Part shown: one piece after another, positions 19,615 to 61,181 of the stretch
Layout of the letters: every line of letters begins with the position of its first letter
Position numbering within the stretch: position 1 is the stretch's first letter
Assembly: GCA_040752415.1 (NCBI GenBank)
Contig: JBFMGU010000006.1
Location: 7,779 to 71,778 of the forward strand
Direction: 5' to 3'
DNA: 64,000 bases
Source of the DNA: Myxococcota bacterium
Lineage (GTDB): Bacteria > Myxococcota > JACRCW01
Translations under genes and position numbers: made by a program
The notes under the pieces: model-generated
What the model was told of the DNA's origin: nothing
Database searches by the model: none
The model's input: the letters and a program-made list of their open reading frames with translations, nothing else

Positions 19615-19718
19615 TTCCCGCGGGCGGAGGCCTGCAGCGCGTTGGGCCGCGGCGTTTTCCTTGCGTCGCTGATGCCTGCGTCTATGCTCGTGCTCCCCGT
19701 TGCCTGTTGGTGGAGCCC

Positions 19719-20474
19719 ATGCGCGTCCCTTCCCTGCTCTCTTCCTCCAGCATCATCCTCCTCCTCACCACGCTGGCGTGCAGCGGCGGAAGCAGCTCCA
19801 CGTCGTCGACGAGCTCCTCCACCGGCGGCACCAGCACCTCGTCCTCCTCTTCCAGCTCGTCGGGCAGCAGCTCCAGCTCGTCGTCGGGCGGGACGGTGGC
19901 GGAGAACGAAAGCTGCGTGAGCGACGAGGGCGAGGAGCTGGAGTGCGAGGACGGCCTCATCTGCGTCACCGTCTCCGACGAGAACGACACCCTCCTCTAC
20001 GGCGCGTGCAAGACCCCGTGTGAGAGCGACGCCGACTGCGGCAGCCGCACCTGCGCGCTGGGCTTCCTCTCCGACGGCAGTGGCGTGTGCGGCAACCTGC
20101 ACGGCCCGGGCGAGACCGGCTGTGAGTTCTGGGAGGAGGGCGACGACTTCTGCTTCAACCCCGACTTCACCGAGGGTCCGGACACCGCGTACATCGAGTG
20201 TCTCAACGGGACATGCGGCTACGTGTGCAACGCGGAAGGCGCCACGGACCCGGCCCTCACCTGCCCGACGGGACAGACCTGCGGCACCACCTTCCAGAGC
20301 TACGACGGATATGAGTCCGCGCTCGCGGTGTGTGAGACGGGCGGCGCCAGCTCGTCGTCGTCTTCCTCCTCCTCGAGCTCCTCCTCCAGCTCGACGGGCG
20401 GAGCGGGCACCTCCAGCACCTCCAGCAGCGGCGGCACTTCCAGCAGCACCGCGTCCTCCACCGGCGGACCGTAG
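19719..20474 (+). CDS. lipoprotein with a Ser/Thr linker and a Cys/acidic-rich domain
   Basis: MRVPSLLSSSSIILLLTTLACSGG, a lipobox, is followed by a poly-S/T linker, an acidic Cys-rich core (~18 Cys) and a second poly-Ser tail. The 643-aa antisense ORF 19335..21266 was rejected. Confidence 0.7.
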   Translation: MRVPSLLSSSSIILLLTTLACSGGSSSTSSTSSSTGGTSTSSSSSSSSGSSSSSSSGGTVAENESCVSDEGEELECEDGLICVTVSDENDTLLYGACKTPCESDADCGSRTCALGFLSDGSGVCGNLHGPGETGCEFWEEGDDFCFNPDFTEGPDTAYIECLNGTCGYVCNAEGATDPALTCPTGQTCGTTFQSYDGYESALAVCETGGASSSSSSSSSSSSSSSTGGAGTSSTSSSGGTSSSTASSTGGP

Positions 20475-22942: not shown

Positions 22943-23455
22943 ATGTGGCTGGCCGTGGGCATGATCGGGATGGTGCTGGGCGCGCAGGTGGAGACGCCGC
23001 GTGACGACGCGCGGGCGCTGGTGTGGACCTTTGAGGTGCAGGACGGCGTGGACAGCGCGCTGGCGCCGTTGCTCACCGACGCGCTGGTGGTGGCGCTCCG
23101 TCGCAGCGGTGAGTTCTCCATGGTGCACAGCAGCGCGGACGTGCAGGACATCCTGCAGCGCACGCCGGCGGAGCGCCTGGGTCAATGCACCGCGTGCCTG
23201 GCCTCCGTGCAGCGACTGCTGGCGGTTTCCCACGTCGTGGTGGGGCGGATCACGCGGGTGGGCGGACAGCTGGCGGTGAGCGTGAAGCTGGTGGACACCG
23301 AGGGAGCGCGCGTGATGGCCAGCGTGCTGCAGTTGGTCCCGGACCCCAATGAAGCGGCGCTGCTGCGACTCATGGACGTGTTGGCTTCACGCCTGCTCAT
23401 GACGCTGGCGCAGCAGGACCTGCAGGACGCCGTGGCGGAAGCAACCGCGCCGTGA
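22943..23455 (+). CDS. secreted protein, paralog family A (LpoB/CsgG/TolB-N-like pattern)
   Basis: An AAGGAG site precedes the ATG. A signal peptide is followed by a ~120-aa domain with a V.TF.V.....S.LA.LLTDALV.AL..SG.F block, a C..C pair and a VVVG.I.R.G..L.V.VKLVD block. It is related to 24062..24934 and 56606..57460. Confidence 0.65.
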   Translation: MWLAVGMIGMVLGAQVETPRDDARALVWTFEVQDGVDSALAPLLTDALVVALRRSGEFSMVHSSADVQDILQRTPAERLGQCTACLASVQRLLAVSHVVVGRITRVGGQLAVSVKLVDTEGARVMASVLQLVPDPNEAALLRLMDVLASRLLMTLAQQDLQDAVAEATAP

Positions 23456-23459
23456 GGCG

Positions 23460-23984
23460 TCAGTCCCGTCGGGAACGGATCTCGTCCAGCACTGCGCTGA
23501 GCTGAGCCGCTCCGAGCAGTCGCTCCGCCGATGGGAAGATCACGTTCTCCTCCAGGACCAGATGCGCCTCCAGGTGTTGCGCCAGCGCGGCCGCGCCCTC
23601 CGCCAGCTCCGCGGCGAGCACATCCCATTCCCGCGGGTCATGGGCGAGGCGCTGCCAGCGCGGAAGCAAGGCGGCCAGCATGGCATCCTGCTCCGCGTGC
23701 TCCCGGCGCATGCGCTCCAGCGCGGCGGTGACGTCGTCTGGCGCGCCGGCGGCGAGGATGCGCGGGAGGAGCGACTCGTCCTCGTCGCGCGCGTGGGCGG
23801 GCAGGGAGCGGGAGAAGTAGCGGACCAGCTGTTGCGCCGCTTCCACGCGCTGTTCCGTTGGCGCATCCCGCGTGGTGGCGAGCCGCTGCGCCAGCGCGGT
23901 GTGGTGACGGATGCGGACGTGGCACGCGAGCAGGCTGGCCACGGGCCCCTCGTTTCCTCGCGGTGCGCCAATGCGGACGAGCAT
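23460..23984 (-). CDS. hemerythrin HHE cation-binding domain protein
   Basis: Starting at ATG 23984 gives MLVRIGAPRG.... Repeated H...E and H....E spacing (HHTALAQ, HAEQDAML, HLEAHLVLEE) is typical of the hemerythrin-like domain. The table ORF's upstream 82 codons are Arg/Pro-rich and implausible. Confidence 0.7.
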   Translation of the reverse strand: MLVRIGAPRGNEGPVASLLACHVRIRHHTALAQRLATTRDAPTEQRVEAAQQLVRYFSRSLPAHARDEDESLLPRILAAGAPDDVTAALERMRREHAEQDAMLAALLPRWQRLAHDPREWDVLAAELAEGAAALAQHLEAHLVLEENVIFPSAERLLGAAQLSAVLDEIRSRRD

Positions 23985-24061
23985 GTGGGGATGAAGCGGT
24001 GCGGCGCCGGCCCTGTCAAGCGTGACCGCCCCTTGAGCACTCCCCCCTCCACCACGAGAAT

Positions 24062-24934
24062 GTGCACGTGCCGTCACGCCTCGCCATCCTGCTGACGCTC
24101 CTGCTCGCGGCTTCCCCCGCCGCCGGATCGACGACGTCAGCGCGCAGCATCGGCGTGCTGGCCCTGCAGGTGCATCCCGGCATTGCCAGCGCGGAGGTGC
24201 AGGCCGCCAGCGCCGCACTGGTGACGACACTGCAGGGAAGCACCGCCATCTCCCGCGTGCTCTCCCCGTCGGAGATCGAGGTGGTGGTCCGTCCGGAGGT
24301 CCAGGTCGACCTGCAGCAGTGCACCGACCCCGCGTGCATCCTTGCCGTGGCGGGCGGGCTGGGCGGTGACTTCGCGTTGCTGGGGCTGGACCTGCTGATG
24401 ATGGGGGACATGAAACGCGCGCTCAATGACGTCGTCGTCGAGGTGCGCGTGGTGGACCTGCGCACCGGTCAGACCGTGGGGGGAGGACATGGGCAGTCGG
24501 AGTCCGCGGCGTCGGCGGCCACCCTGAGCGCCAACATGGTGCTGGGTGCGCTGGGCGACGCGCGCGAGGTGTCCGCGGCCCCCACCCCCGCGCCCACGAC
24601 GAGCAACACCGCGCCACCGCCTGCCTCTTCGTCGGAGACCGGGGTTTCCCCGCTAACGGTTGCGGGAGGCTCGCTGCTGGCGGTGGGGGTGTTGGCGCTG
24701 GTGGCGAGCCTTCCCGCGGCGGCCGGAGCCATCTCCGCGGTGGTGGCACTCTCCCGCGGCGCGGTGGTGGGCGCCCTTCCCACGCCAATGCTGACGCGCA
24801 CCTCGCGCTACGTGGCGCTGCGCGTTCCTCCCGTGATGCTGGCAATCACCGGCGGCGTGCTCGCGCTGCTCGGTGTCGTCGGAGTCTCGCTGGGCATGGC
24901 GCTCCTGGGCGGCGCGTTGGCCACCGACGGGTAG
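24062..24934 (+). CDS. secreted protein, paralog family A, with a C-terminal Gly/Ala/Val-rich polytopic membrane anchor
   Basis: GTG start. Signal peptide MHVPSRLAILLTLLLAASPAAGS. The same domain pattern as 22943..23455 is present (IGVLALQV...C.DP.C..AVAGGLG...LLG). It is followed by a Thr/Pro linker and ~3 hydrophobic segments. Confidence 0.65.
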   Translation: MHVPSRLAILLTLLLAASPAAGSTTSARSIGVLALQVHPGIASAEVQAASAALVTTLQGSTAISRVLSPSEIEVVVRPEVQVDLQQCTDPACILAVAGGLGGDFALLGLDLLMMGDMKRALNDVVVEVRVVDLRTGQTVGGGHGQSESAASAATLSANMVLGALGDAREVSAAPTPAPTTSNTAPPPASSSETGVSPLTVAGGSLLAVGVLALVASLPAAAGAISAVVALSRGAVVGALPTPMLTRTSRYVALRVPPVMLAITGGVLALLGVVGVSLGMALLGGALATDG

Positions 24935-24962: not shown

Positions 24963-24984
24963 CCTTACTGATTAGTAAGTAAGG
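24963..24984. promoter_or_regulatory. candidate TetR operator O1 (8-6-8 inverted repeat CCTTACTG-attagt-AAGTAAGG)
   Basis: It is a perfect inverted repeat apart from 1 mismatch. It is extremely AT-rich for this genome. It ends 8 bp before the tetR ATG (24993). Confidence 0.55.
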
Positions 24985-24992
24985 TGCTGGCC

Positions 24993-25559
24993 ATGTCCGC
25001 CAAGCCCGACACGCGCGAGGAGATCCTGAAGACCGCCAGCAACATGCTGCAGCTGCGCGGCTTCAACGGCTTCAGCTACGGGCACATTGCCGAGGTGCTG
25101 GGCGTGAAGGCGGCCGCGGTCCACTACCACTTCCCCTCCAAGACGGACCTGGGGCTGGCGCTGATTGCCCGCTACCGCGAGCGCTACGGCCGGTGGATGA
25201 AGGACGCGCAGGGGCTCTCCGCGCGGGAGCGCCTGGAGGGCTACATCACCATCTACTCACGCTTCCTGCAGGAGGGCGCCAAGGCGTGCCCGGCGGGCGT
25301 GCTGCAGGCGGAATACCAGGCCATCCCCGAGGAGATGCAGCGCGAGACCCGGCGCATGGTGCAGGAGATCCACCGCTGGCTCACCGACGTCCTGGAGGAT
25401 GGACGCCGCAAGAGCGAGTTCGCGTTCAACGGGGACGGTTCCGACAAGGCCACGGTGGTGATGGCCACGTTGCAGGGGGCGCTGCAGGGGGCGCGCGCGC
25501 TGGGCAAGGAGTGCTTCCAGGCCGCGGTGCGACAGCTCAAGAAGGACCTGGGGGTGTGA
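24993..25559 (+). CDS. TetR/AcrR family transcriptional regulator
   Basis: The N-terminal HTH is REEILKTASNMLQLRGFNGFSYGHIAEVLGVKAAAVHYHFPSKTDL. A T8 tract lies directly after the stop. Confidence 0.9.
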   Translation: MSAKPDTREEILKTASNMLQLRGFNGFSYGHIAEVLGVKAAAVHYHFPSKTDLGLALIARYRERYGRWMKDAQGLSARERLEGYITIYSRFLQEGAKACPAGVLQAEYQAIPEEMQRETRRMVQEIHRWLTDVLEDGRRKSEFAFNGDGSDKATVVMATLQGALQGARALGKECFQAAVRQLKKDLGV

Positions 25560-25581: not shown

Positions 25582-25603
25582 CCTTACTTATCAGAAAGTA
25601 AGG
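25582..25603. promoter_or_regulatory. candidate TetR operator O2 (CCTTACTT-atcaga-AAGTAAGG)
   Basis: Same half-sites and 6-bp spacer as O1. It lies immediately upstream of the hydrolase gene start (ATG 25604 or 25622). Confidence 0.55.
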
Positions 25604-25621
25604 ATGCCCGAGGAGGACGCC

Positions 25622-26551
25622 ATGTTGGAGACGCAACGGGGGGCGACGACGGGCAAGCGCAGCACACCGGTGGTGAACCCGCTGGCCATGCGCGTGGCGC
25701 AGGCGGCGTTTGGCGGTCTGGGGGAGCTGGCCCCCGACGTCATGTCGCGGCTGGCCTACAAGCTCTACTTCACGCCCCGCCGCTTCCGACGTCCGGAGAC
25801 GGAGGCCGCCTACCTCCGCAAGGCCGAGCGTTTCTCGGTTTCCACGTCGGTGGGCGAGGTGGCGGCGTACGCGTGGACACCGCAAGGCGCGTATCCCTGG
25901 GACTCCCGCGCCACGGTGCGCAACGTGCTGCTGGTGCACGGCTGGGAAGGTCGCGGCACGCAGTTGGGCGCGTTCATCGAGCCGCTGCGCGCGCGCGGGT
26001 GTCGCGTGGTGGCCTTTGATGCGCCGGCGCACGGCCACTCCGAGGGGGAGCGCTCCAACGTGCTGCAGTTCGTGGAGGCGATCCACGCCGTCACGCGCAT
26101 GGTGGGCCCGCTCAGCGGCGTGGTGGCGCACTCCATGGGCGGGGCAAGCCTCACGCTGGCCATGGCGGAGGGACTGCCGGTGGACCGCGCGGTGCTGGTG
26201 GCCTCGCCCTGCTACCTGGACAACGTGATGCGCAACTTCGTGCGGATGCTGCATCTCACGCCGGAGACGGAGCGGCGGCTGCGGCGCATGGTGGAAGCGG
26301 ACTTTGGCGCGGATGTCTGGCAACGCCTCTCCGTCCCCAGCCTGGCGCACGCGCTGCAGACCCCCGCCCTCATCATCCACGACGAGGACGACGGCGAGGT
26401 TGCCTTCAGCGAGGGGCTGGCGGTGCACCAGAGCTGGTCGGGCAGCCGCCTGCATGTCACGCGTGGGCTGGGCCACCGTCGCGTGCTCAAGGACGGCCTG
26501 GTCATTGACGAGGTGGTGGGATTCCTCATGGGAGAGCGGGACGGGGCGTGA
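25622..26551 (+). CDS. alpha/beta hydrolase (probable TetR-controlled target)
   Basis: ATG 25622 is preceded by GAGGAGG. It has HGWEGRG, a nucleophile elbow HSMGG, and a C-terminal IIHDEDD...GH pair typical of the alpha/beta hydrolase fold. Confidence 0.85.
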   Translation: MLETQRGATTGKRSTPVVNPLAMRVAQAAFGGLGELAPDVMSRLAYKLYFTPRRFRRPETEAAYLRKAERFSVSTSVGEVAAYAWTPQGAYPWDSRATVRNVLLVHGWEGRGTQLGAFIEPLRARGCRVVAFDAPAHGHSEGERSNVLQFVEAIHAVTRMVGPLSGVVAHSMGGASLTLAMAEGLPVDRAVLVASPCYLDNVMRNFVRMLHLTPETERRLRRMVEADFGADVWQRLSVPSLAHALQTPALIIHDEDDGEVAFSEGLAVHQSWSGSRLHVTRGLGHRRVLKDGLVIDEVVGFLMGERDGA

Positions 26552-27155
26552 CCTGCGCGGGCGTCACCAGGATGTTCCCGCTCCGGTAGCGCCGCGCGTG
26601 GTGCGGGACGCCGCCGGGCACGTCGACGAAACAGATGGGCTGGGAGCGGTTCTGCCGGTCCACCACCTCGAAGTGCAGGTGCGGCTCCCACGACCAGCCC
26701 GTGTTGCCCGAGAGCGCGAGCACCTCCCCCTGCTTCACCGCGCGGCCCACGCGCACGCGCGCGCTGTGCGGAGCCAGGTGCTGGTACACCGAGAAGCGTC
26801 CGGTCCCGTGGCGCACCACCACGACGTTGGCGCGCTCCGCCAGCCGACGGTCCGGACCGCCCTGCGTGTGATGATCCGTCACGCGCACCACCACCCCGTC
26901 GGCGGCGGCGGTGACCGGGCTGCCCGGCGGCATGCGGAAATCCCAGGCGTACAGGTCATCATCCAGGTGGCTGAACGCGCCGCGGTTGGCCTGCATCACC
27001 TGGTGCTCCACGCCGGCCGGGAAGGGGAGTCGCCAGGGCACGTCGTCATGCGCGCAGTGACCCTGGCGCCACGGCGCATCCATCCGTGCCGCGGGATGGG
27101 AGCGGCATCCCAGCAGCGTCACCATGAGCAGCACCACCCGCGGACCCACGCGCAT
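26526..27155 (-). CDS. M23 family metallopeptidase lipoprotein
   Basis: Starting at ATG 27155 gives MRVGPRVVLLMVTLLGC, a lipobox. The HxxxD (HLDDD..YAWD) and HxH (EPHLHFEV) LytM-type motifs are present. It overlaps the convergent hydrolase gene by 26 bp. Confidence 0.8.
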   Translation of the reverse strand: MRVGPRVVLLMVTLLGCRSHPAARMDAPWRQGHCAHDDVPWRLPFPAGVEHQVMQANRGAFSHLDDDLYAWDFRMPPGSPVTAAADGVVVRVTDHHTQGGPDRRLAERANVVVVRHGTGRFSVYQHLAPHSARVRVGRAVKQGEVLALSGNTGWSWEPHLHFEVVDRQNRSQPICFVDVPGGVPHHARRYRSGNILVTPAQVTPRPALP

Positions 27156-27280
27156 GGCCCTGCTGTAGCGGGCCGCCCCGTTCCCGACGACAGCGACGTT
27201 CGTGCCCACCGTTGTCGACGGGGAACGGGCCACTTGCTCCGCCCGCCTCCGGGGTTATCCCCTCGGTGGCGAGGTGGGTC

Positions 27281-53867: not shown

Positions 53868-53954
53868 ACCGCGGTGGCGACGGAGCACGCCGTGGGTTGA
53901 CACGTGCCGCCAGATGGGATTGCCATTCGCCGCACGAACGAAGTGAGGCGAAAC

Positions 53955-55145
53955 ATGAAGCGGCGGATGGCGGTGCTGGTGGTGGTGTGGGCGGCGGCGT
54001 GCAGTGCGGGCAGTGGATCGGGGACCAGCGGTGCGTCGTCCTCCAGCGGGTCGGTGGAGTCCTCTTCCACGTCGGAGAGCGGCTCCTCCACGTCGGAGGG
54101 CTCCACCTCGTCGGGTGGGACCGGTTCCTCCAGCAGCACCTCCGGCGGCGAGACCCGGAGCTCCTCCACCAGCAGCGCCACGACGACCTCCACGTCGAGC
54201 GCGACATCATCCACGGGTTCGTCGAGCGCCACGGCCAGCTCGTCCTCCAGCTCGTCGTCCAGCTCCTCCAGCTCCTCCTCGGGAGTGGCCGTGGATGTCT
54301 CCGCCGCCAAGCGCGCCTATCTCACCAGCGCCGCGGCCTACGAGGTGCCGGTGGCCACCAGCGCGCTCGTCGTCGACGCGGTGTACACGGCGAGCATCCT
54401 GGGCGCGCAGGGCCAGGCCATCCTGACCACGGGGACCATCACCCAGGACGGCAACGGGCAGCTCAGCTACAGCAGCTCGCCGTCGGACCGGCTCCGCGTG
54501 GTGTACAGCGCGGGCGCCACCGTCGAGTACTTCATCTCGCAGATCGACGGGAACTTTGCCCTGGACTCCAGCGCCTTCCTCACCGAGGACCACGCGCTGA
54601 ACTTCCGTTACGTGAACAGCGGCGTGGCGGACCTTCAGGTGGTGGCCTCGCGTTCCGGCAGCACCCAGCAGGGAAGCATGAACGGCACGCTGGTCATCGA
54701 GTCGGTGAGCCACACGGTGAGCTGCTCGCGGCAGGGCACGGTCACCAGCCAGGTGGACTCCGGCTTCGCCCGCACCGACAGCAACGAGACGGTGACCGGG
54801 ACCATCACCGCCGCGGACTTCTCCATGACGGTGAATGAGCAGCGCGTGAGCGCCTTCCAGGTCTACAACGGGCAATCCGTCAACGACATCTCCCGGACCA
54901 TCGACGACGCGTGGACCACGCAAGGCATTCCGTACACGCTCTCCGGCGGGCTCATCCAGAAGAGCTTCGTCGACGGCGTGGCGGCGCAGCTGGACTCCTA
55001 CTGGCGCGCCGAGGGTCCCCTCACGCGCGACGGCGTGCCGGTGGGTGGGCTGGGCTGGGGTCAGGACGGCCTGGCCATCCAGGTCTGGCTGGACGTGGGT
55101 GGGCAGCGCACGGTGCTGGAGACCTACAGCGCGCCCCAATCGTGA
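53955..55145 (+). CDS. lipoprotein of unknown function with a Ser/Thr-rich linker
   Basis: ATG 53955 gives MKRRMAVLVVVWAAACSAGSG, a lipobox. A ~100-aa poly-S/T region is followed by a ~270-aa C-terminal domain. Confidence 0.7.
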   Translation: MKRRMAVLVVVWAAACSAGSGSGTSGASSSSGSVESSSTSESGSSTSEGSTSSGGTGSSSSTSGGETRSSSTSSATTTSTSSATSSTGSSSATASSSSSSSSSSSSSSSGVAVDVSAAKRAYLTSAAAYEVPVATSALVVDAVYTASILGAQGQAILTTGTITQDGNGQLSYSSSPSDRLRVVYSAGATVEYFISQIDGNFALDSSAFLTEDHALNFRYVNSGVADLQVVASRSGSTQQGSMNGTLVIESVSHTVSCSRQGTVTSQVDSGFARTDSNETVTGTITAADFSMTVNEQRVSAFQVYNGQSVNDISRTIDDAWTTQGIPYTLSGGLIQKSFVDGVAAQLDSYWRAEGPLTRDGVPVGGLGWGQDGLAIQVWLDVGGQRTVLETYSAPQS

Positions 55146-55305: not shown

Positions 55306-56133
55306 TCAGTTCCCGTCGATGCACTTGCCGAAATACACCGACTCGCTCACCGCCTCGCCTTCCCCGTCGGTGAACTCGCCGTAGAGGCGGGGATTGCCGC
55401 CCACGCCGCCAATGGAGGGCTGCTTGGCGATGTGGATTGGGCCGTCGGTGGGCGTGATGACCATGTCCACCGTGGTCTCATACGGGTCCGTGGTGTGCGT
55501 GCCCTTGGTGTTGTTCTTGAAGCGCATGCGGCCGTTGAGCCCGCTCATGACAATCGCCTCGTCGACGTAGATGTAGGGCCCGGGATGGTTGGTGCAGCCG
55601 CTGAGGTCCACGTACGCGGACAGGTCCGTGGGCAGGTCAAAGTAGAGGTCCTTGGCGCCGAGCCCCTTCTTGCACCGGCCGAGATAGAACTCATCCGTGA
55701 TGGGGTTCCACTTGTCGTCGAAGAGCTGCATGTAGATCAGCGGATTGCCGCCGGCGCCTCCCGCCGCCACCGACTTGGGGACCTGGATGGATTGCCCGTA
55801 GGGAATCATGTTGAGGCCAATGGTGGCCTCGATGTCACCGGACTTGTGCGTGCCCTTCTCGTTGTTCTGGAAGATGAGGTTCATCCCCGCGCCGCCCACG
55901 TACATCTCGCCGCTGATGGTGACGTAGGGACCGCCGGACTGCTCACACCCCGTCACGCTGGGTTTGAGCTTGAGGTTGCCCCGCGTGGTGGTGGTGGCCG
56001 TCATGACGTGATCCGTGTACTGCACCGGCGCAAGCGCGCTCCCGGTCTCCGGGCTCGTCGTCTCCGGGCTGGCGTCGGCATCACATCCCACCGCCAGCGC
56101 TCCCGTGAGCAACAACCCCGCTCCCTTCAACAT
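55306..56133 (-). CDS. lipoprotein with an internal tandem duplication of a ~110-aa domain
   Basis: Starting at ATG 56133 gives MLKGAGLLLTGALAVGC, a lipobox. The repeats YVTISGEMYVGGAGMNLIFQNNEKGTHKSGD... and YIYVDEAIVMSGLNGRMRFKNNTKGTHTTDP... share the pattern F.NN.KGTH and GG.GGNP. Confidence 0.7.
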   Translation of the reverse strand: MLKGAGLLLTGALAVGCDADASPETTSPETGSALAPVQYTDHVMTATTTTRGNLKLKPSVTGCEQSGGPYVTISGEMYVGGAGMNLIFQNNEKGTHKSGDIEATIGLNMIPYGQSIQVPKSVAAGGAGGNPLIYMQLFDDKWNPITDEFYLGRCKKGLGAKDLYFDLPTDLSAYVDLSGCTNHPGPYIYVDEAIVMSGLNGRMRFKNNTKGTHTTDPYETTVDMVITPTDGPIHIAKQPSIGGVGGNPRLYGEFTDGEGEAVSESVYFGKCIDGN

Positions 56134-56605
56134 GCACTCCGCGCGATGGTAACGACCCATGTGCATCGCTCCCTCTGCTTGTCGACGGGAACCCGGCGGA
56201 CAAGCTGGTGTCATGCGTGGCCCGTCACGGCCGCGCGTGGCCCTGCTGCAAATGGCTGTGACGGGTGATTCGGGCCGCTGCGCGCTTCCCCTGCGGGGGA
56301 CAACGCCAGCAGCACGTGCAACGAGCGCCGCGGCTTGAGGGATGCCCTCAGCGCGGACGTCACGGCCAGCTATCCTAACGGTGGGAGGCGCCCAAGCCAG
56401 CGCTCACTCGACGTCGACAAGGCAGTCAACGTGACAACGTGCGCCGAGGCCCCGGGACACCGGGCGCGTGCCCGCGTCGGAAATCTGCAACCCGCTGAAG
56501 ACGGCGTCACGGCGACACCAACCAAGTTGACGACGTGGGAATCAAGCCAGCGTCCCAGGCGCGGTCCGCTGGTGGCACCGCGGGACCTCCTCCAAGCGCG
56601 GAACG

Positions 56606-57460
56606 TTGCGGCGCGGTCCGCAGGTGGTGGAAGCTCCGGGGGTGTTGGCGTTGTGGATAGGCACCTTGGTGGTGGCGGGCGCGGTGACGCAGGACGCGTC
56701 GGTGGCGGTGTTCCCACTGCGAGCGGAAGCGGAGCTGAAGGAGAGCGTGGCGCGGCTGCTGACGGAGTCGCTGGTGGAACAGGTGCGCAAGAGCGGAAGG
56801 TTCTCCCGGGTGGTGACGCCGCAGGAGATTGCCGCCACCATGCCCGCGCAGCAGCAGACCGTGATCATGGAGTGCGCTCGCAGCGAGTGCGGGATGGTGG
56901 ACACGGAGCTGGCCGGGGCGTTGGGGGCAACCCACGTGCTGGTGGGGACGGCGGGGCGGCTGGGGAGCACCTACGTGCTGGCCTTGCGGCTCCTGGAGCT
57001 GCGGAGCGCACTGGTGGTGGCGTCGGTCACCGAGAACGTGAGCGGCAGCGGTGATGAGGTCCTGTTGCGTGCGCTGCCGCGGATGGTGTCCCACCTGCTG
57101 GGGCAAGCCGGGTTGATGCAGACGCACGTCGTGACGTCCCCGGAGTCCACTCGTCCTCCCCTCCGACCCGCGCTGTGGAGCGTGGGCGCCGTGACCGGCC
57201 TGGGCGCCGTGGCGGGCCTGGTGCTCGCGGGCGGTCTCGGCGTGGCCGGCGTGGGATGGATGTGGCTGACCTATTCCGTGACCCCGCGCTTCGCTCGCCT
57301 CCTGCCCGTGGGGCCGCTGGAAGACGACACCGCGCTGCTGGCGCGACTGGTCGGACCGGCGTCCATCCTGTTCGTGCTCGGTGCTGGCGTGGCGGTGCTG
57401 GGATTGGTGCTGGGCGGCGTGGCGGTGGGTACTGTGGCTGCCGGCTTGGGAATGGAGTGA
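56606..57460 (+). CDS. secreted protein, paralog family A, with a C-terminal polytopic Gly/Ala/Val-rich anchor
   Basis: Signal peptide. The domain AVFPLRAEAELKESVARLLTESLVEQVRKSGRFSRVV...ECARSEC...THVLVGTAGRLGSTYVLALRLLE matches 22943..23455 and 24062..24934. The C-terminus has at least 3 hydrophobic segments, like 24062..24934. Confidence 0.65.
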   Translation: MRRGPQVVEAPGVLALWIGTLVVAGAVTQDASVAVFPLRAEAELKESVARLLTESLVEQVRKSGRFSRVVTPQEIAATMPAQQQTVIMECARSECGMVDTELAGALGATHVLVGTAGRLGSTYVLALRLLELRSALVVASVTENVSGSGDEVLLRALPRMVSHLLGQAGLMQTHVVTSPESTRPPLRPALWSVGAVTGLGAVAGLVLAGGLGVAGVGWMWLTYSVTPRFARLLPVGPLEDDTALLARLVGPASILFVLGAGVAVLGLVLGGVAVGTVAAGLGME

Positions 57461-57468
57461 AGCCGCTC

Positions 57469-59235
57469 ATGACCCGACGGTGGCTACCGGTGATCCTGGC
57501 AAGCCTTGCGGCATGGGGCTGTCCCAGCACGGAACAAGCGTGCGACACCACGGAAGACTGTTTTGCGGGAACGGAGTGCGGCCCCGACGGGCGGTGTCAT
57601 CGCATCACGTCGTCATCGCTTTCCTCCACGTCGGCCACGTCCTCTTCGGGCTCCGCGGCATCCTCCGCCACAAGCTCCGCCTCGGCGTCGTCGTCCTCTT
57701 CTGCCTCATCGGCCGCGGTGGGGACCTCAACGTCGTCCTCATCGTCCGGCGCCTCGGGGGTGGCCTCGACGAACAGCGCCACCACGACCAGCACCTCCCA
57801 GGCGGCCTCTTCCAGCAGCAGCTCCAGCGGCCAGAGCACCTCCCTCTCCACGGCAGCGTCGTCGACAACGTCCTCCTCGTCGTCGTCCACGGGCGCCACG
57901 TCATCCGCCTCCGCCGCGGCCACATCCACGAGCGGCGGGACAACCACGTCTTCGGCGGCCGTTTCCTCGTCGTCCTCGTCGTCCTCGTCGTCGTCCTCGT
58001 CGTCCTCGTCGTCCTCGTCGTCTTCTTCGTCGTCCTCGTCCAGCAGCGGGTGGGCGGTGAGCAGCTCGTCGTCCGGGCAGCCACACTGCGGGGGCCCGCC
58101 GGCATTCACGGATGACTTTTCCAGCACCTATGTGGACAGCGCTCGCTGGGTCGTCACGGCGGAGGGCGTTTCGGTCAACCAGTTTTCCTCCAAGCTCTCC
58201 GTCTACTTTCCCGCCAACGGCGAGCAGGATCCCCACGGCGGCGTGACCACGACGCTGCGGTACGACGTCAGGGGCTCGTATGCGTCGGTGAAGGTCGACT
58301 CGGTGGGAGGCGAGCAGATCGCTCCGTCGCTCGCCATCACGGATCCGGACAACCTGGCCCGGGGCTTCATGCTGGAGCGGCAAGCCGGGGAGCTGGTGTT
58401 CATGGTGGACGGGGTCGAGCAGGCGCGCGCGGCCTTCGTCCCAGGCACGGATGTGTGGTGGCGGATCCGGGAGGCGTCCGGCGTGGTGTACTGCGACACG
58501 TCGGCTGACGGGGCCAACTGGGCAACGCGCTTGTCGGTGATTTCCTCCCAGAGTGCATTGGACCTGTCCCGCGCCGTGGTGGCGTTGCAGGCGCGGCACC
58601 TGTCGGGCGGGCCGGGTGATGGCAGCTCGGCAAGGTTCACCAACTACAACGGCGGGGGCGTACCCGCGGAGCCGTTCTGCCCAAGTCTTTCGTTCTCGCA
58701 GGACCTGACCCGGCCCCTGCCCGATCCGGACTTCACCTTCGAGGGGACGTGCCCCATCGCCGCCACGCCAGGCGGACTGAGCTTCACCATTCCCGGCACG
58801 GCGTGCTCCAGCGCCTATTCATCCGCCACGGCCTACAATCTCGTGGACTCCGCGGTGTTCGTGGAGCTCTCCGACGGCACGAACGCGAGCGCGTACATGG
58901 GGCTGGAAGTGAGGACCGCGGACGGGCTGTACGCGGCGTCGTTCTCCCGGGTCAGTGGTGGTGGGTTCTACGAAGCGCGGACCATCGTGCCCGGCATGTC
59001 CTCGCCGGTCCGGAGCGATATGCTGGGAGGGGTCCAACACCTCTGGCTCAAGATCGCGCAGGAGGGCACGCTGCTCGTCTGGTACTACAGCAGCGACGGG
59101 CTCACCTGGATCGCATTCGCCAGCACCATCGCGGACACGCCGTTCTCGGACGTGCGGATCAAGCTGTTCTTCTCGAGCAACGGCCAGCCCAACGGGTCCA
59201 GCGCGCTCTTCAACCACCTGAACACGTCGCCGTGA
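57469..59235 (+). CDS. lipoprotein with an N-terminal Cys-rich module (CDTTEDCFAGTECGPDGRCH), a very long Ser/Thr linker and two tandem beta-rich domains
   Basis: ATG 57469 gives MTRRWLPVILASLAAWGC, a lipobox. It contains an uninterrupted 27-Ser run. The table ORF starts earlier at 57175 in a poor context. Confidence 0.7.
   Translation: MTRRWLPVILASLAAWGCPSTEQACDTTEDCFAGTECGPDGRCHRITSSSLSSTSATSSSGSAASSATSSASASSSSSASSAAVGTSTSSSSSGASGVASTNSATTTSTSQAASSSSSSSGQSTSLSTAASSTTSSSSSSTGATSSASAAATSTSGGTTTSSAAVSSSSSSSSSSSSSSSSSSSSSSSSSSSSGWAVSSSSSGQPHCGGPPAFTDDFSSTYVDSARWVVTAEGVSVNQFSSKLSVYFPANGEQDPHGGVTTTLRYDVRGSYASVKVDSVGGEQIAPSLAITDPDNLARGFMLERQAGELVFMVDGVEQARAAFVPGTDVWWRIREASGVVYCDTSADGANWATRLSVISSQSALDLSRAVVALQARHLSGGPGDGSSARFTNYNGGGVPAEPFCPSLSFSQDLTRPLPDPDFTFEGTCPIAATPGGLSFTIPGTACSSAYSSATAYNLVDSAVFVELSDGTNASAYMGLEVRTADGLYAASFSRVSGGGFYEARTIVPGMSSPVRSDMLGGVQHLWLKIAQEGTLLVWYYSSDGLTWIAFASTIADTPFSDVRIKLFFSSNGQPNGSSALFNHLNTSP
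57964..58040 (+). repeat. trinucleotide/9-bp (tcctcgtcg)n microsatellite encoding the poly-Ser run
   Basis: Near-perfect tandem 9-bp units are read directly from the sequence. It lies inside the CDS 57469..59235. Confidence 0.8.
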
Positions 59236-60674: not shown

Positions 60675-61181
60675 TCAGCCGCCGTCGGCGACACCGCCGT
60701 CGCGCGGGGCGGGCAGCTGGTCGCCGGGCAGCGCGCCCCCCGCGATCCAGGCGCGGATCAGGGCAATGCGCTCGTCGGACAGGCGCGTGCCGATGGGCAT
60801 GCGGGAGCCCCCGCCGCTGGGTGGACGGTCCACGACCTTGATGTACAGGAAGCTCTCCTCGGGGACGCCGGGCTTCACCTGCGGGAAGTCGCTCTTGATG
60901 GCGTTGGCGCCCTGGCCGTCCGGCCCCAGCAGCGCCTGGTAGGCCGCGCCCGCCACCAGGCTGAGCTGGCCAGCGGGGTTGGCGCTGCCGTCGTGGCAGT
61001 CGGCGCACTCCGGCGTGAAGATGGTGGCCTGGATGTTGTTGAAGGTGGGGGGGCCCGCGTCGGGGGCGGCCGTGCCCGCGTCGGAATCCCCGCCGGAGGA
61101 CGAGCCTCCCGAGCCGGTGGTGGGCCCACACGCCACCGCGGCCATCACCAGCGCCATCCCTGCCCAGCCCGCAGCCTTCAT
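60675..61181 (-). CDS. c-type cytochrome lipoprotein
   Basis: Lipobox ALVMAAVACG. A single CxxCH heme-binding motif (PECADCHDG) is present. ~168 aa. Confidence 0.7.
   Translation of the reverse strand: MKAAGWAGMALVMAAVACGPTTGSGGSSSGGDSDAGTAAPDAGPPTFNNIQATIFTPECADCHDGSANPAGQLSLVAGAAYQALLGPDGQGANAIKSDFPQVKPGVPEESFLYIKVVDRPPSGGGSRMPIGTRLSDERIALIRAWIAGGALPGDQLPAPRDGGVADGG

Follow-up and report, generated by a model that had tools for sequence, protein, structure and literature searches.

Three related genes, here called P1, P2 and P3, lie in the window, a stretch of 64,000 nucleotides from a Myxococcota MAG (Table 1). An earlier reading of the letters alone (the original prediction) had proposed them as paralogs, and their open reading frames (ORFs) were found exactly at the coordinates given there. 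All three are present in the NCBI gene annotation, and their codon positions carry a coding signature (GC3 0.87–0.90, GC2 0.44–0.55) in a sequence with 69.6% GC. In BLASTP comparisons, P1 matched P3 with an E-value of 5e-12 (29% identity across 140 aa), P2 matched P3 with 5e-7 and P1 matched P2 with 1e-3. A profile of 41 family sequences scored 114 bits for P1, 103 for P2 and 174 for P3, and a six-frame translation of the window yielded, besides these three, no match to it above 4.4 bits. P1, P2 and P3 are thus confirmed as coding and homologous, with a similarity well beyond chance.

P1 and P2 are separated by a hemerythrin gene on the minus strand (PF01814, E=8.8e-15), which had been described as convergent; it is so with respect to P1, its stop lying 5 nt away, but it is divergent from P2. 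Since the sequence of P1 is nearer to that of P3, despite the distance between the genes, than to that of its neighbor P2, the adjacency of P1 and P2 does not reflect a recent tandem duplication. P2 is followed by a TetR regulator at 24984 and, 1.6 kb downstream, past two unrelated genes and on the opposite strand, by an M23 peptidase gene (26526–27233). Overall, the gene neighbors in the window encode TPR, hemerythrin, TetR, hydrolase, M23 and unknown lipoproteins.

Table 1. Features of P1, P2, P3 and the putative partner gene of P3, in window coordinates. Domains, hairpins and the partner are predicted.
Feature	Position	Strand	Remarks
P1	22943..23455	+	NCBI AB2A00_01940; 170 aa; short form
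P1 TolB-N/LpoB/PelC/CsgG-type α/β domain (aa 23–157)	23009..23413	+	family HMM 114 bits
P2	24062..24934	+	NCBI AB2A00_01950, annotated from 24068; 288–290 aa; long form
P2 α/β domain (aa 27–169)	24140..24568	+	family HMM 103 bits; AF2 pLDDT ~90
P2 flexible linker VSAAPTPAPTTSNTAPPPASSSETGVS	24569..24649	+	pLDDT 56–61, without secondary structure in the model
P2 C-terminal membrane hairpin	24650..24928	+	AF2 helices 195–229 and 244–287, pLDDT 84–92
P3	56606..57460	+	NCBI AB2A00_02115, annotated from 56624; 278–284 aa; long form
P3 α/β domain (aa 30–170)	56693..57115	+	Cys pair C90/C95 at nt 56873–56890
P3 C-terminal membrane hairpin	57170..57451	+	AF2 helices 183–219 and 236–276 (278-aa numbering), pLDDT ~80–90
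Putative P3 partner, lipoprotein gene	57457..59235	+	lipobox; position overlapping the P3 stop

The proteins share a domain that is real but somewhat longer than originally described, with a length of about 135 rather than 120 residues. The sequence motifs listed for it are found in P1 and P3, whereas P2, the most divergent of the three, lacks some of them although its modelled fold is the same: AASAALV replaces LLT[DE]xLV, and there is an insertion ahead of the β-hairpin. P3 fits the family consensus best. The conserved cysteine pair is present in all three proteins, as C-x4-C in P2 (C87/C92, nt 24320–24337) and P3 and with an atypical C-x2-C spacing in P1 (C82/C85, nt 23186–23197). It recurs in 181 of 183 family domains, 163 of them with the C-x4-C spacing.

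At their N-termini, P2 (aa 1–22) and P3 have hydrophobic segments with AxA-like cleavage sites. The corresponding segment of P1 (aa 1–14/16) is weaker, being short and without a basic n-region. The first 80 residues of P1–P3 contain no cysteine, and only 2 of 150 relatives have a lipobox-like N-terminus; by sequence, the family's signal appears to be of the Sec type, and it is not of the lipoprotein type. The near-invariant cysteine pair fits an oxidizing compartment and is consistent with the predicted export to the periplasm. Members of the family are predicted to be exported to the cell envelope and consist of an α/β domain with a cysteine pair, to which the long forms (P2, P3) add a linker and a hairpin; P1 has neither.

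The linker of P2 is rich in Pro, Ala, Ser and Thr, and that of P3 is short (nt 57116–57169). For the region that follows, at least three membrane spans had been proposed, but the models of P2 and P3 and the tails of the family favor a hairpin of two helices. These lie at nt 24650–24754 and 24797–24928 in P2, connected by an Arg-rich loop, and at nt 57170–57280 and 57329–57451 in P3, connected by the loop TPRFARLLPVGPLEDD. Among the 119 single-domain top matches, 99 carry two and only two long hydrophobic stretches (median 38–39 charge-free residues each) and 9 are short forms, which bears out the proposed modularity; two or three copies of the domain in tandem occur in 31 of 150 relatives. The order of elements in the tail is conserved: a linker, [RK]xP, G-x6-G-x6-G, a loop with P and R, and a second Gly-heptad helix. 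A tail HMM from which the window proteins had been left out gave 47.3 bits for the tail of P2 and 31.8 for that of P3, and at most 3.1 and 5.7 bits, respectively, for their shuffled versions. By this separation, the tails are homologous and not just alike in composition. Their helices are uniformly hydrophobic (Kyte-Doolittle 1.9–2.6 over 19-aa windows) and not amphipathic. The stretch of 12 residues ahead of helix 1 contains about 1.9 lysines and arginines and the loop about 2.1, which makes the positive-inside rule ambiguous, and the arrangement in the membrane is uncertain because helices of 38 residues far exceed what a bilayer needs.

The three genes first recognized in the window are an undercount of the family. 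At least ten paralogs in the source MAG carry AB2A00_ locus tags, a HMMER profile of P1–P3 matched 9,670 cluster representatives at E≤1e-3 and still 1,306 when the cutoff was E≤1e-10, and a genome scan with an alignment of family members identified 43 loci, every one of them in a Myxococcota MAG. The family is large, expanded in Myxococcota and, as had been supposed, unnamed: no Pfam or NCBIfam model scores above its threshold, except for a partial CsgG match on P1, and the NCBI name is hypothetical protein. The sole label found, on some relatives, is the generic JGI term "TolB-like protein". In the literature searched on COG5616, on TolB-like proteins of Myxococcus, on CsgG-, PelC- and LpoB-like proteins and on myxobacterial glycine-zipper lipoproteins, the family did not come up, and searches with PADLOC and PHROGs yielded no matches.

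The resemblance to LpoB, CsgG and the N-terminal domain of TolB, originally noted by eye, is borne out by sub-threshold HMM matches to five families of this group, by AF2 models and by Foldseek. The modelled domains of P2 and P3 have a pLDDT of about 90 or above; that of P2 shows the topology β-α-β-α-α-α-β-β-β-α, and Foldseek matched it to TolB, LpoB, PelC, FlgT and CsgG with E-values of 1e-4 to 1e-3. For P1, the Pfam matches were DUF3280 (5.8e-5), CsgG (1e-4), FlgO (2e-3) and TolB_N (0.015). Judging from the models, the domain belongs, at the level of the superfamily, to the TolB_N/LpoB/CsgG/PelC/PqiC/LptE-type α/β fold group.

The nearest families in sequence are DUF3280 (PF11684), which 55 of 105 family members match at E<0.01 (best 1.2e-7), and FlgO (PF17680), which 25 of 105 match at the same cutoff (best 9.6e-8). 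P1 and P3 matched DUF3280 over most of the domain at about 6e-5, with 23.9 and 23.6 bits against a gathering threshold of 30.1, and P2 did not match it; their scores for FlgO, 18.4 and 19.3 bits against a threshold of 22.6, come from the C-terminal third of the profile alone. All three families have in common a strand-turn-strand core, G-[VA]-D-x-[LV]-[LV]-x-G-x-[VI], but neither DUF3280 nor FlgO has been described with a C-x4-C pair or a C-terminal helical hairpin. On sequence similarity, DUF3280, a family whose function is not known, is the closest named family and is a sister, not the parent, of the P1–P3 family. FlgO is part of the flagellar outer-membrane apparatus of Vibrio; to our knowledge, an apparatus of this type is absent from myxobacteria, and there are no flagellar genes near P1–P3. 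The description line of PF11684 also gave a lead to "DUF2380", which we rejected, as that name properly belongs to PF09533, the family of SitA6 toxins, which is unrelated (PMC12077181, PMC6091211).

The match of P1 to CsgG (PF03783) exceeds the cut-off (22.1 against 20.8 bits), but it covers only profile positions 40–99 of 210; P2 and P3 do not match, and only 3 of 105 family members do. CsgG and PelC are outer-membrane lipoproteins, whereas the P1–P3 family lacks a lipobox. CsgG further adds transmembrane β-hairpins and sits in the csg operon, and the anchor here is an α-helical hairpin. PelC is a lipoprotein of Pel polysaccharide export encoded in the pel operon. Neither curli genes (csgE/F, csgA/B) nor pel genes were found near P1–P3, and the family does not belong to PelC, which is marked by lipoprotein status, a dodecameric ring and the pel operon. 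LpoB (PF13036) gave no Pfam match for P1–P3 and matched one of 105 relatives (5.6e-5). It activates PBP1b and is a lipoprotein of the outer membrane whose linker is N-terminal, and relative to it the polarity of the P1–P3 family is reversed, with a C-terminal, helical and probably inner-membrane anchor. Further, LpoB occurs once per genome, whereas this family has at least ten paralogs and no linkage to PBPs. For TolB, scores were far below the cut-off for TIGR02800 (17.2 against 343 bits) and below that for TolB_N (PF04052, 15.8 against 22.4). TolB is a soluble protein of the tol-pal cluster in which the N-domain is fused to a six-bladed β-propeller, whereas P1–P3 end after the domain or hairpin, without a propeller and without adjacent tol-pal genes. 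TraT, a conjugative surface-exclusion lipoprotein, differs in being lipidated, with a surface-exposed domain, and its helices are amphipathic, located in the outer membrane and set between parts of the domain instead of at the C-terminus. PelC forms a dodecamer and TraT a decamer (PMC11733297), and PA3214 forms an octamer (PMC13631591).

PBP, Tol-Pal and motility genes, which the original prediction had suggested as a place to look, were not found to co-occur with the family in the neighborhoods of P1–P3 or at the 43 loci. BLAST clustering of neighbors at 1e-8 returned only generic myxobacterial Ser/Thr kinases and sigma-54 activators. The sole conserved neighbor, missed at first, is a translationally coupled downstream lipoprotein gene, which came to light when we inspected downstream ORFs that overlap the stop codons of family genes. 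With lipoboxes detected by a crude regular expression, a lipobox ORF lies downstream of 16 of 33 family genes and of 57 of 377 background genes (p=2e-5); when at least two extra cysteines are asked for, the counts are 12 of 33 and 22 of 377 (p=1.6e-6). The start of the lipoprotein is typically offset by −3, which is a 4-nt overlap, and the same arrangement was seen in an independent set, at four of five informative P3-like metagenome loci. The pairing is read only from position and N-terminal pattern, because the partner lipoproteins are too divergent for BLAST clustering. An adjacent lipoprotein gene is missing for at least half of the family, including P1 and P2. From this pattern in the sequences, the downstream lipoprotein is probably the partner of many members, including P3, and the pairing appears to be new, as apparently nobody has named or studied it.

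Of the three genes in the window, only P3 has such a neighbor. The putative partner starts either at GTG 57457, which overlaps the stop codon of P3 as GTGA, or at ATG 57469. Its lipobox, LAAWGC, is followed by a four-cysteine knot, ACDTTEDCFAGTECGPDGRC, a Ser/Thr/Ala/Gly spacer of about 160 residues in which about 29 serines stand in a row, and a C-terminal region of about 380 residues without a database match. Searches against Pfam (to E=1), NCBIfam, PADLOC and PDB sequences yielded nothing significant. The knot bears a non-significant likeness (E=0.14) to squash trypsin-inhibitor knottins, and a few partner lipoproteins elsewhere in the family gave weak propeller-type hints, which we record as a mere curiosity.

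The architecture can be read as an inner-membrane-tethered periplasmic docking module, whose docked partner is often the downstream lipoprotein and of which P1 and P2 are solo paralogs; we hold the chances of this reading to be about even. The hydrophobic hairpin would act as a stop-transfer sequence and fix the protein in the inner membrane, the cysteine pair would form a disulfide in the periplasm, and the tethered domain would reach into the periplasm for docking or scaffolding of proteins, in a geometry that would mirror LpoB, which extends inward from the outer membrane. To describe such proteins as periplasmic adaptors, as had been proposed, is a reasonable inference. By analogy with most structural relatives, self-association is probable, with contacts made by the domain and by the Gly-heptad helices, and it has indirect support from the tandem-domain relatives and from the rings formed by the structural neighbors PelC, TraT and PA3214. 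For about one third to one half of the members, including P3, the docked partner would be the product of the coupled gene, with its disulfide-knot N-terminus, Ser/Gly-rich spacer and variable C-terminal domain. P1 would be a soluble solo form consisting of the domain only, and P2 an anchored one without an adjacent lipoprotein.

The same features could instead belong to an oligomeric ring or export platform in the outer membrane, in which the hairpins form an α-helical barrel and which exports or displays, for example, the downstream lipoprotein. TraT joins a related ring domain to α-helical membrane anchors (PMC11733297), the helices are overlong for a simple span of the bilayer, their Gly heptads suit tight bundles, tandem-domain relatives exist and the very long Ser-rich stalk of the coupled lipoprotein suggests surface display. 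Yet CsgG, PelC, TraT, LpoB, PqiC and LptE are all lipoproteins, which the family, with 2 lipoboxes in 150 relatives, is not. Through Sec stop-transfer, strongly hydrophobic helices are kept in the inner membrane, and retention there would be expected for the uniformly hydrophobic, non-amphipathic helices of this family. As CsgG-type transmembrane β-hairpin segments are missing as well and secretion, polysaccharide or curli genes were not found nearby, we regard such a ring or platform as fairly unlikely. A regulator of cell-wall synthesis or remodelling or of Tol-Pal, which in the manner of LpoB or TolB would bind a synthase, a hydrolase or a Tol-Pal component, is improbable. Its flexible linker would recall that of LpoB, the M23 peptidase gene lies close to P2 and some relatives bear the JGI label, but this gene is on the opposite strand past two unrelated ones, and no gene for a PBP, a Tol-Pal component or a hydrolase recurs beside members at the 43 loci. 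At least ten divergent paralogs per genome are ill-suited to a housekeeping regulator, scores for LpoB and TolB_N stay under the Pfam thresholds and no β-propeller follows the domain.

That the proteins are membrane-active effectors akin to toxins or bacteriocins seems very unlikely. The Gly-rich hairpin, of a kind that pore-forming toxins can contain, would enter target membranes in the manner of glycine-zipper pore formers, the neighboring gene would provide immunity or delivery, and the diversity of this large family would reflect antagonistic arms races. Myxobacteria are indeed rich in polymorphic toxins (PMC12077181). The conserved part, however, is a periplasmic scaffold domain without any toxin domain, short forms have no hairpin at all, and the neighbor is a large lipoprotein and not a small immunity protein; PADLOC and PHROGs gave no matches and a mobile-element or secretion-system context was not seen. 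An artifact, in which high GC and a composition rich in Ala, Gly, Val and Leu mimic similarity or the ORFs are not genes, has a negligible probability and is already refuted. Many long spurious ORFs do arise in high-GC genomes and the tails are compositionally biased, but the correct frame shows the coding GC3/GC2 pattern, NCBI annotates all three genes, no other ORF of the window approaches their profile scores of 103–174 bits, real tails far outscore shuffled ones (at most 5.7 bits) and the AF2 models are confident.

The TolB-N/LpoB/PelC/CsgG/PqiC/LptE fold is a standard building block of outer-membrane lipoprotein machines. Here it is found in a different configuration, unlipidated, with an α-helical hairpin as anchor, stapled by a cysteine pair and present in at least ten copies per genome. 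That family genes are often translationally coupled to those of large, variable lipoproteins points to a specific partnership between protein and lipoprotein. A bolder reading, which we consider unlikely, is that of an undescribed two-gene envelope cassette: PelC/CsgG-type ring domains and Gly-heptad helical bundles would together build an oligomeric membrane platform, with many copies per genome, that docks, tethers or displays one cognate lipoprotein. The platform would recognize the N-terminal disulfide knot of the lipoprotein, and various functions at the surface would stem from the lipoprotein's variable C-terminal domains. If the pairing is not functional, the family would still be correctly classified, as an ordinary lineage-specific expansion of a known fold. 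If it is functional, it would warrant two new Pfam families, one for the hairpin module and one for the domain, and would offer a way into the question of how myxobacteria position or display a portion of their very large set of lipoproteins.

The three secreted paralogues of the original prediction (P1, P2 and P3) were all found exactly where it had placed them, annotated by NCBI as genes of the Myxococcota MAG, and they are indeed homologous. P1 matches P3 in BLASTP at 5e-12 (29% over 140 aa), P2 matches P3 at 5e-7 and P1 matches P2 at 1e-3, so that the nearer relative of P1 is not the adjoining P2 but P3, at a distance of 33 kb. A profile of 41 family members gave P1, P2 and P3 scores of 114, 103 and 174 bits, respectively, and no other six-frame ORF of the window exceeded 4.4 bits; the window therefore holds exactly three copies. 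The hemerythrin-domain gene on the minus strand between P1 and P2 was also recovered (PF01814, 8.8e-15). GC3 and the Pfam match at residues 97-233 favor a start for it at the Met at nt 23984 (∼174 aa), which would leave ∼80 bp of divergent promoter space before P2.

Features of the window that encode the three paralogues or lie in their neighborhoods
Feature	Position	Strand	Length	Remarks
P1	22943-23455	+	170 aa	AB2A00_01940, "hypothetical protein"
P2	24062-24934	+	290 aa	AB2A00_01950, "hypothetical protein"
P3	56606-57460	+	284 aa	AB2A00_02115, "hypothetical protein"
Putative P3 partner lipoprotein	57457-59235	+		GTG at 57457 overlaps P3 stop as GTGA; ATG at 57469
Hemerythrin ORF, longest version	23460-24230	-	256 aa	82 codons upstream, into P2 start
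TetR regulator	24984-25559	+		3' of P2; probably in operon with hydrolase
Alpha/beta hydrolase	about 25600-26551	+		3' of TetR gene
M23 peptidase	26526-27233	-		beyond hydrolase, opposite strand to P2
Secreted protein	55306-56214	-	302 aa	divergent from P3; no Pfam match
"Stalked" lipoprotein type	19707-20474	+		no Pfam match
"Stalked" lipoprotein type	53904-55145	+		no Pfam match
"Stalked" lipoprotein type	60675-61181	-		no Pfam match

Pfam searches gave weak matches to DUF3280 (5.8e-5), CsgG (1e-4), FlgO (2e-3) and TolB_N (0.015) for P1 and to DUF3280 (6.8e-5) and FlgO (1e-3) for P3, all belonging to one fold group; P2 had no match, and none of the three had a useful match in NCBIfam. The AlphaFold2 model of P3, built from a 105-sequence alignment, has a mean pLDDT of 82.5 (90-98 in the domain) and the topology β-α-β-α-α-α-β-β-β-α, which recurs identically in the model of P2, the most divergent copy (pLDDT 84). 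Comparison of the domain with known structures gave, as unlabelled figures, 12.3 for CT253, 11.9 for CsgG, 11.8 for PelC (23% identity), 11.7 for a Vibrio LPHT-ring protein, 11.5 for TolB, 10.5 for XCC0632, 10.0 for LpoB, 9.9 for HpaA, 9.4 for GNA1162, 8.8 for TraT, 8.3 for PqiC and 8.0 for LptE. Foldseek searches with the P2 model returned TolB, LpoB, PelC, FlgT, CsgG and GNA1162, each with probability 1.0, and a 2026 paper (PMC13631591) brings these very structures together as lipoproteins of the outer membrane with one common α/β core. The LpoB/CsgG/TolB-N-like fold, originally proposed by eye, is thus correct at the superfamily level.

The domain falls into this known fold group, yet it belongs to none of the named families. 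Its scores fall short of the Pfam cut-offs for DUF3280, FlgO, TolB_N and LpoB, the only CsgG match above the cut-off (P1) spans just 60 of 210 profile positions, and P1-P3 lack a lipobox, a β-propeller and the operon contexts of the named families. Among 105 members, matches to DUF3280 (55) and FlgO (25) outnumber those to TolB_N (4), CsgG (3) and LpoB (1), with best E-values of ∼1e-7; judged by these profile matches, DUF3280 and FlgO are the nearest named families, but neither captures this one. A few relatives carry the JGI label "TolB-like protein", and our literature search found no paper describing the family. The Pfam description of PF11684 (DUF3280), "Protein of unknown function (DUF2380)", points the wrong way, as the name DUF2380 properly belongs to PF09533, which comprises the SitA6 lipoprotein toxins of myxobacteria; an automated reading could falsely tie the P1-P3 genes to Sit toxins.

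An exhaustive HMMER search with a profile of the three paralogues against 1.84 billion cluster representatives yielded 9,670 proteins at E<=1e-3; the number falls to 1,306 at a cut-off of 1e-10 and to 8 at 1e-30. The domain is single in 119 of the best 150 relatives and present in two or three tandem copies in the other 31; exactly two long hydrophobic stretches follow it in 99 of the 119, of which nine more are short forms resembling P1. While the structural relatives are nearly all lipoproteins, a lipobox-like N-terminus occurs in only two of these 150. Of 183 domains, 181 contain a Cys pair, with C-x4-C spacing in 163; the pair forms the sole invariant columns of the 105-sequence alignment. 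The family is expanded, with at least ten members bearing the AB2A00_ prefix of the source MAG. The 43 loci of a genome scan lie without exception in Myxococcota MAGs, at most four per assembly and none in a cultured myxobacterial type strain; since the scan relied on one exact 8-residue pattern, absence from cultured strains cannot be read from these loci. Tandem domains, in two to three copies, occur in about one-fifth of the best relatives (including P0005, P0006, P0013, P0043 and P0053); P0006 consists of a signal peptide, two domains ∼5 residues apart and the hairpin of the long forms. Low-GC relatives have PEGA-like segments and one C-terminal transmembrane helix along with two domains, so that the domain reaches beyond Myxococcota in different architectures.

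The C-terminal region of the long forms, P2 and P3, had been credited with at least three membrane-spanning segments. Instead, it comprises two helices, as judged from charge-free runs with medians of 38 and 39 residues, each of which AlphaFold models as one long helix of an antiparallel hairpin (pLDDT ∼80 in P3, ∼90 in P2). Across the aligned tails of 98 relatives the order is kept: a Pro/Ala/Ser linker, one to three basic residues and a Pro, a helix with G-x6-G-x6-G, a ∼12-residue loop with conserved Pro and Arg, and a second helix with approximately heptad-spaced Gly. A tail HMM trained without the window proteins scored P3 at 31.8 bits and P2 at 47.3 bits, far above the maxima of 5.7 and 3.1 among 200 shuffles per tail, so the module is homologous beyond compositional likeness. 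The 38-residue helices are longer than a bilayer requires, and the positive-inside rule is uninformative (K+R 1.9 ahead of helix 1, 2.1 in the loop). Strongly hydrophobic helices are expected to stay in the inner membrane by Sec stop-transfer, and the uniform, strong hydrophobicity of the hairpin therefore suggests its retention there.

A conserved lipoprotein neighbor had escaped the original prediction. Many same-strand downstream genes overlap the family stop codon by 4 nt, and the overlapping ORFs begin with a lipoprotein signal, a short Cys knot and a Ser/Gly-rich spacer. A downstream lipobox ORF follows 16 of 33 family genes, against 57 of 377 other genes in the same loci (Fisher p 2e-5); with at least two further Cys within 50 aa the counts are 12/33 and 22/377 (p 1.6e-6), with at least three, 9/33 and 14/377 (p 1.7e-5). 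An independent metagenome scan for the P3-like subfamily gave seven loci, five with sufficient downstream sequence, and four of these five have a stop-overlapping lipoprotein with a Cys knot and then a Ser/Gly-rich stretch. The lipoproteins encoded downstream are variable and of large size (242-939 aa), and most have no Pfam match. The P3 partner, which reads MTRRWLPVILASLAAWGC-PSTEQACDTTEDCFAGTECGPDGRC ahead of its spacer, has a lipobox, a 4-Cys knot and a ∼160-residue Ser/Thr/Ala/Gly spacer with a ∼29-Ser homopolymer (roughly nt 57980-58075). Its last ∼380 residues have no match in Pfam, NCBIfam or PADLOC, and the weak similarity of the knot to squash trypsin-inhibitor knottins was not significant (PDB phmmer, E=0.14). 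By eye, its C-terminal region resembles two jelly-roll/ConA-like repeats (WWRIREASGVVYCDTSADGANW, HLWLKIAQEGTLLVWYYSSDGLTW). No lipoprotein partner adjoins P1 or P2. One partner elsewhere (locus L011, 7080-9569) carries a β-propeller signature (Sortilin/BNR, 2.4e-27), and two others (L040, 6758-8023; L020, 6144-8084) show weak Ycf48/PSII_BNR and SBBP hints. As TolB fuses the same α/β domain to a propeller in one protein, a family protein with a propeller lipoprotein could be a split TolB-like arrangement, which we note as a curiosity only.

Near P1 and P2 lie genes for a TPR protein and for the hemerythrin, TetR, hydrolase and M23 proteins, the last three of which do not recur beside family members elsewhere; near P3 lie unknown secreted proteins and lipoproteins. 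The 302-aa secreted protein has an apparent ∼110-aa internal duplication (NNEKGTHKSGD...GGAGGNPLIY / NNTKGTHTTDP...GGVGGNPRLY). The window abounds in "stalked" lipoproteins without assigned function, the three tabulated ones having a lipoprotein-type signal followed by a Ser/Gly-rich low-complexity spacer (e.g. ...TTLACSGGSSSTSSTSSSTG, ...WAAACSAGSGSG, ...AAVACGPTTGSGGSSSGG).

In our reading, which we hold with middling confidence, the long forms are periplasmic docking modules tethered to the inner membrane, with the coupled lipoprotein as partner of P3-type members. Family proteins would be exported via Sec, and the Cys pair would form a periplasmic disulfide stapling a helix end to the next loop; in the P3 model, C84 and C89 lie at the end of helix 75-87 and in the loop after it. 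The hairpin would anchor the long forms, and the domain, on its flexible linker, would serve docking or scaffolding as in every characterized relative of the fold, the docked protein of P3-type members being the lipoprotein. LpoB and PelC are likewise membrane-tethered periplasmic docking domains, whereas the family would have reversed polarity and another anchor. TraT, a decamer, sets a precedent for joining helical membrane anchors to a domain of this kind (PMC11733297).

Self-association is plausible, given the rings that relatives form, the frequent tandem-domain forms and the tight packing favored by Gly-heptad helices. An outer-membrane ring or export platform seems unlikely to us; curli and pel genes are absent from the window neighborhoods of P1-P3, as are PBP, Tol-Pal and motility genes. 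Co-occurrence with PBPs, Tol-Pal or motility genes had been proposed as a lead; it was not borne out near P1-P3, BLAST clustering of neighbors at the 43 loci gave nothing specific, and we judge a role as an LpoB/TolB-like regulator of the cell wall or Tol-Pal distinctly improbable. The probability of a membrane-active effector is very small. Spurious ORFs are numerous in the window (69.6% GC); P1-P3 carry a coding signature (GC3 0.87-0.90, GC2 0.44-0.55), and an artefact is scarcely credible.

Beyond the known fold, the family has an architecture, an invariant Cys pair, a copy number and a coupling to lipoproteins that are undescribed. Neither the family nor its coupling overturns current understanding, and the MAG-only hits of the one-pattern scan matter for the choice of a tractable host. 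The cassette, still unnamed, occurs commonly in an important phylum and is directly testable.
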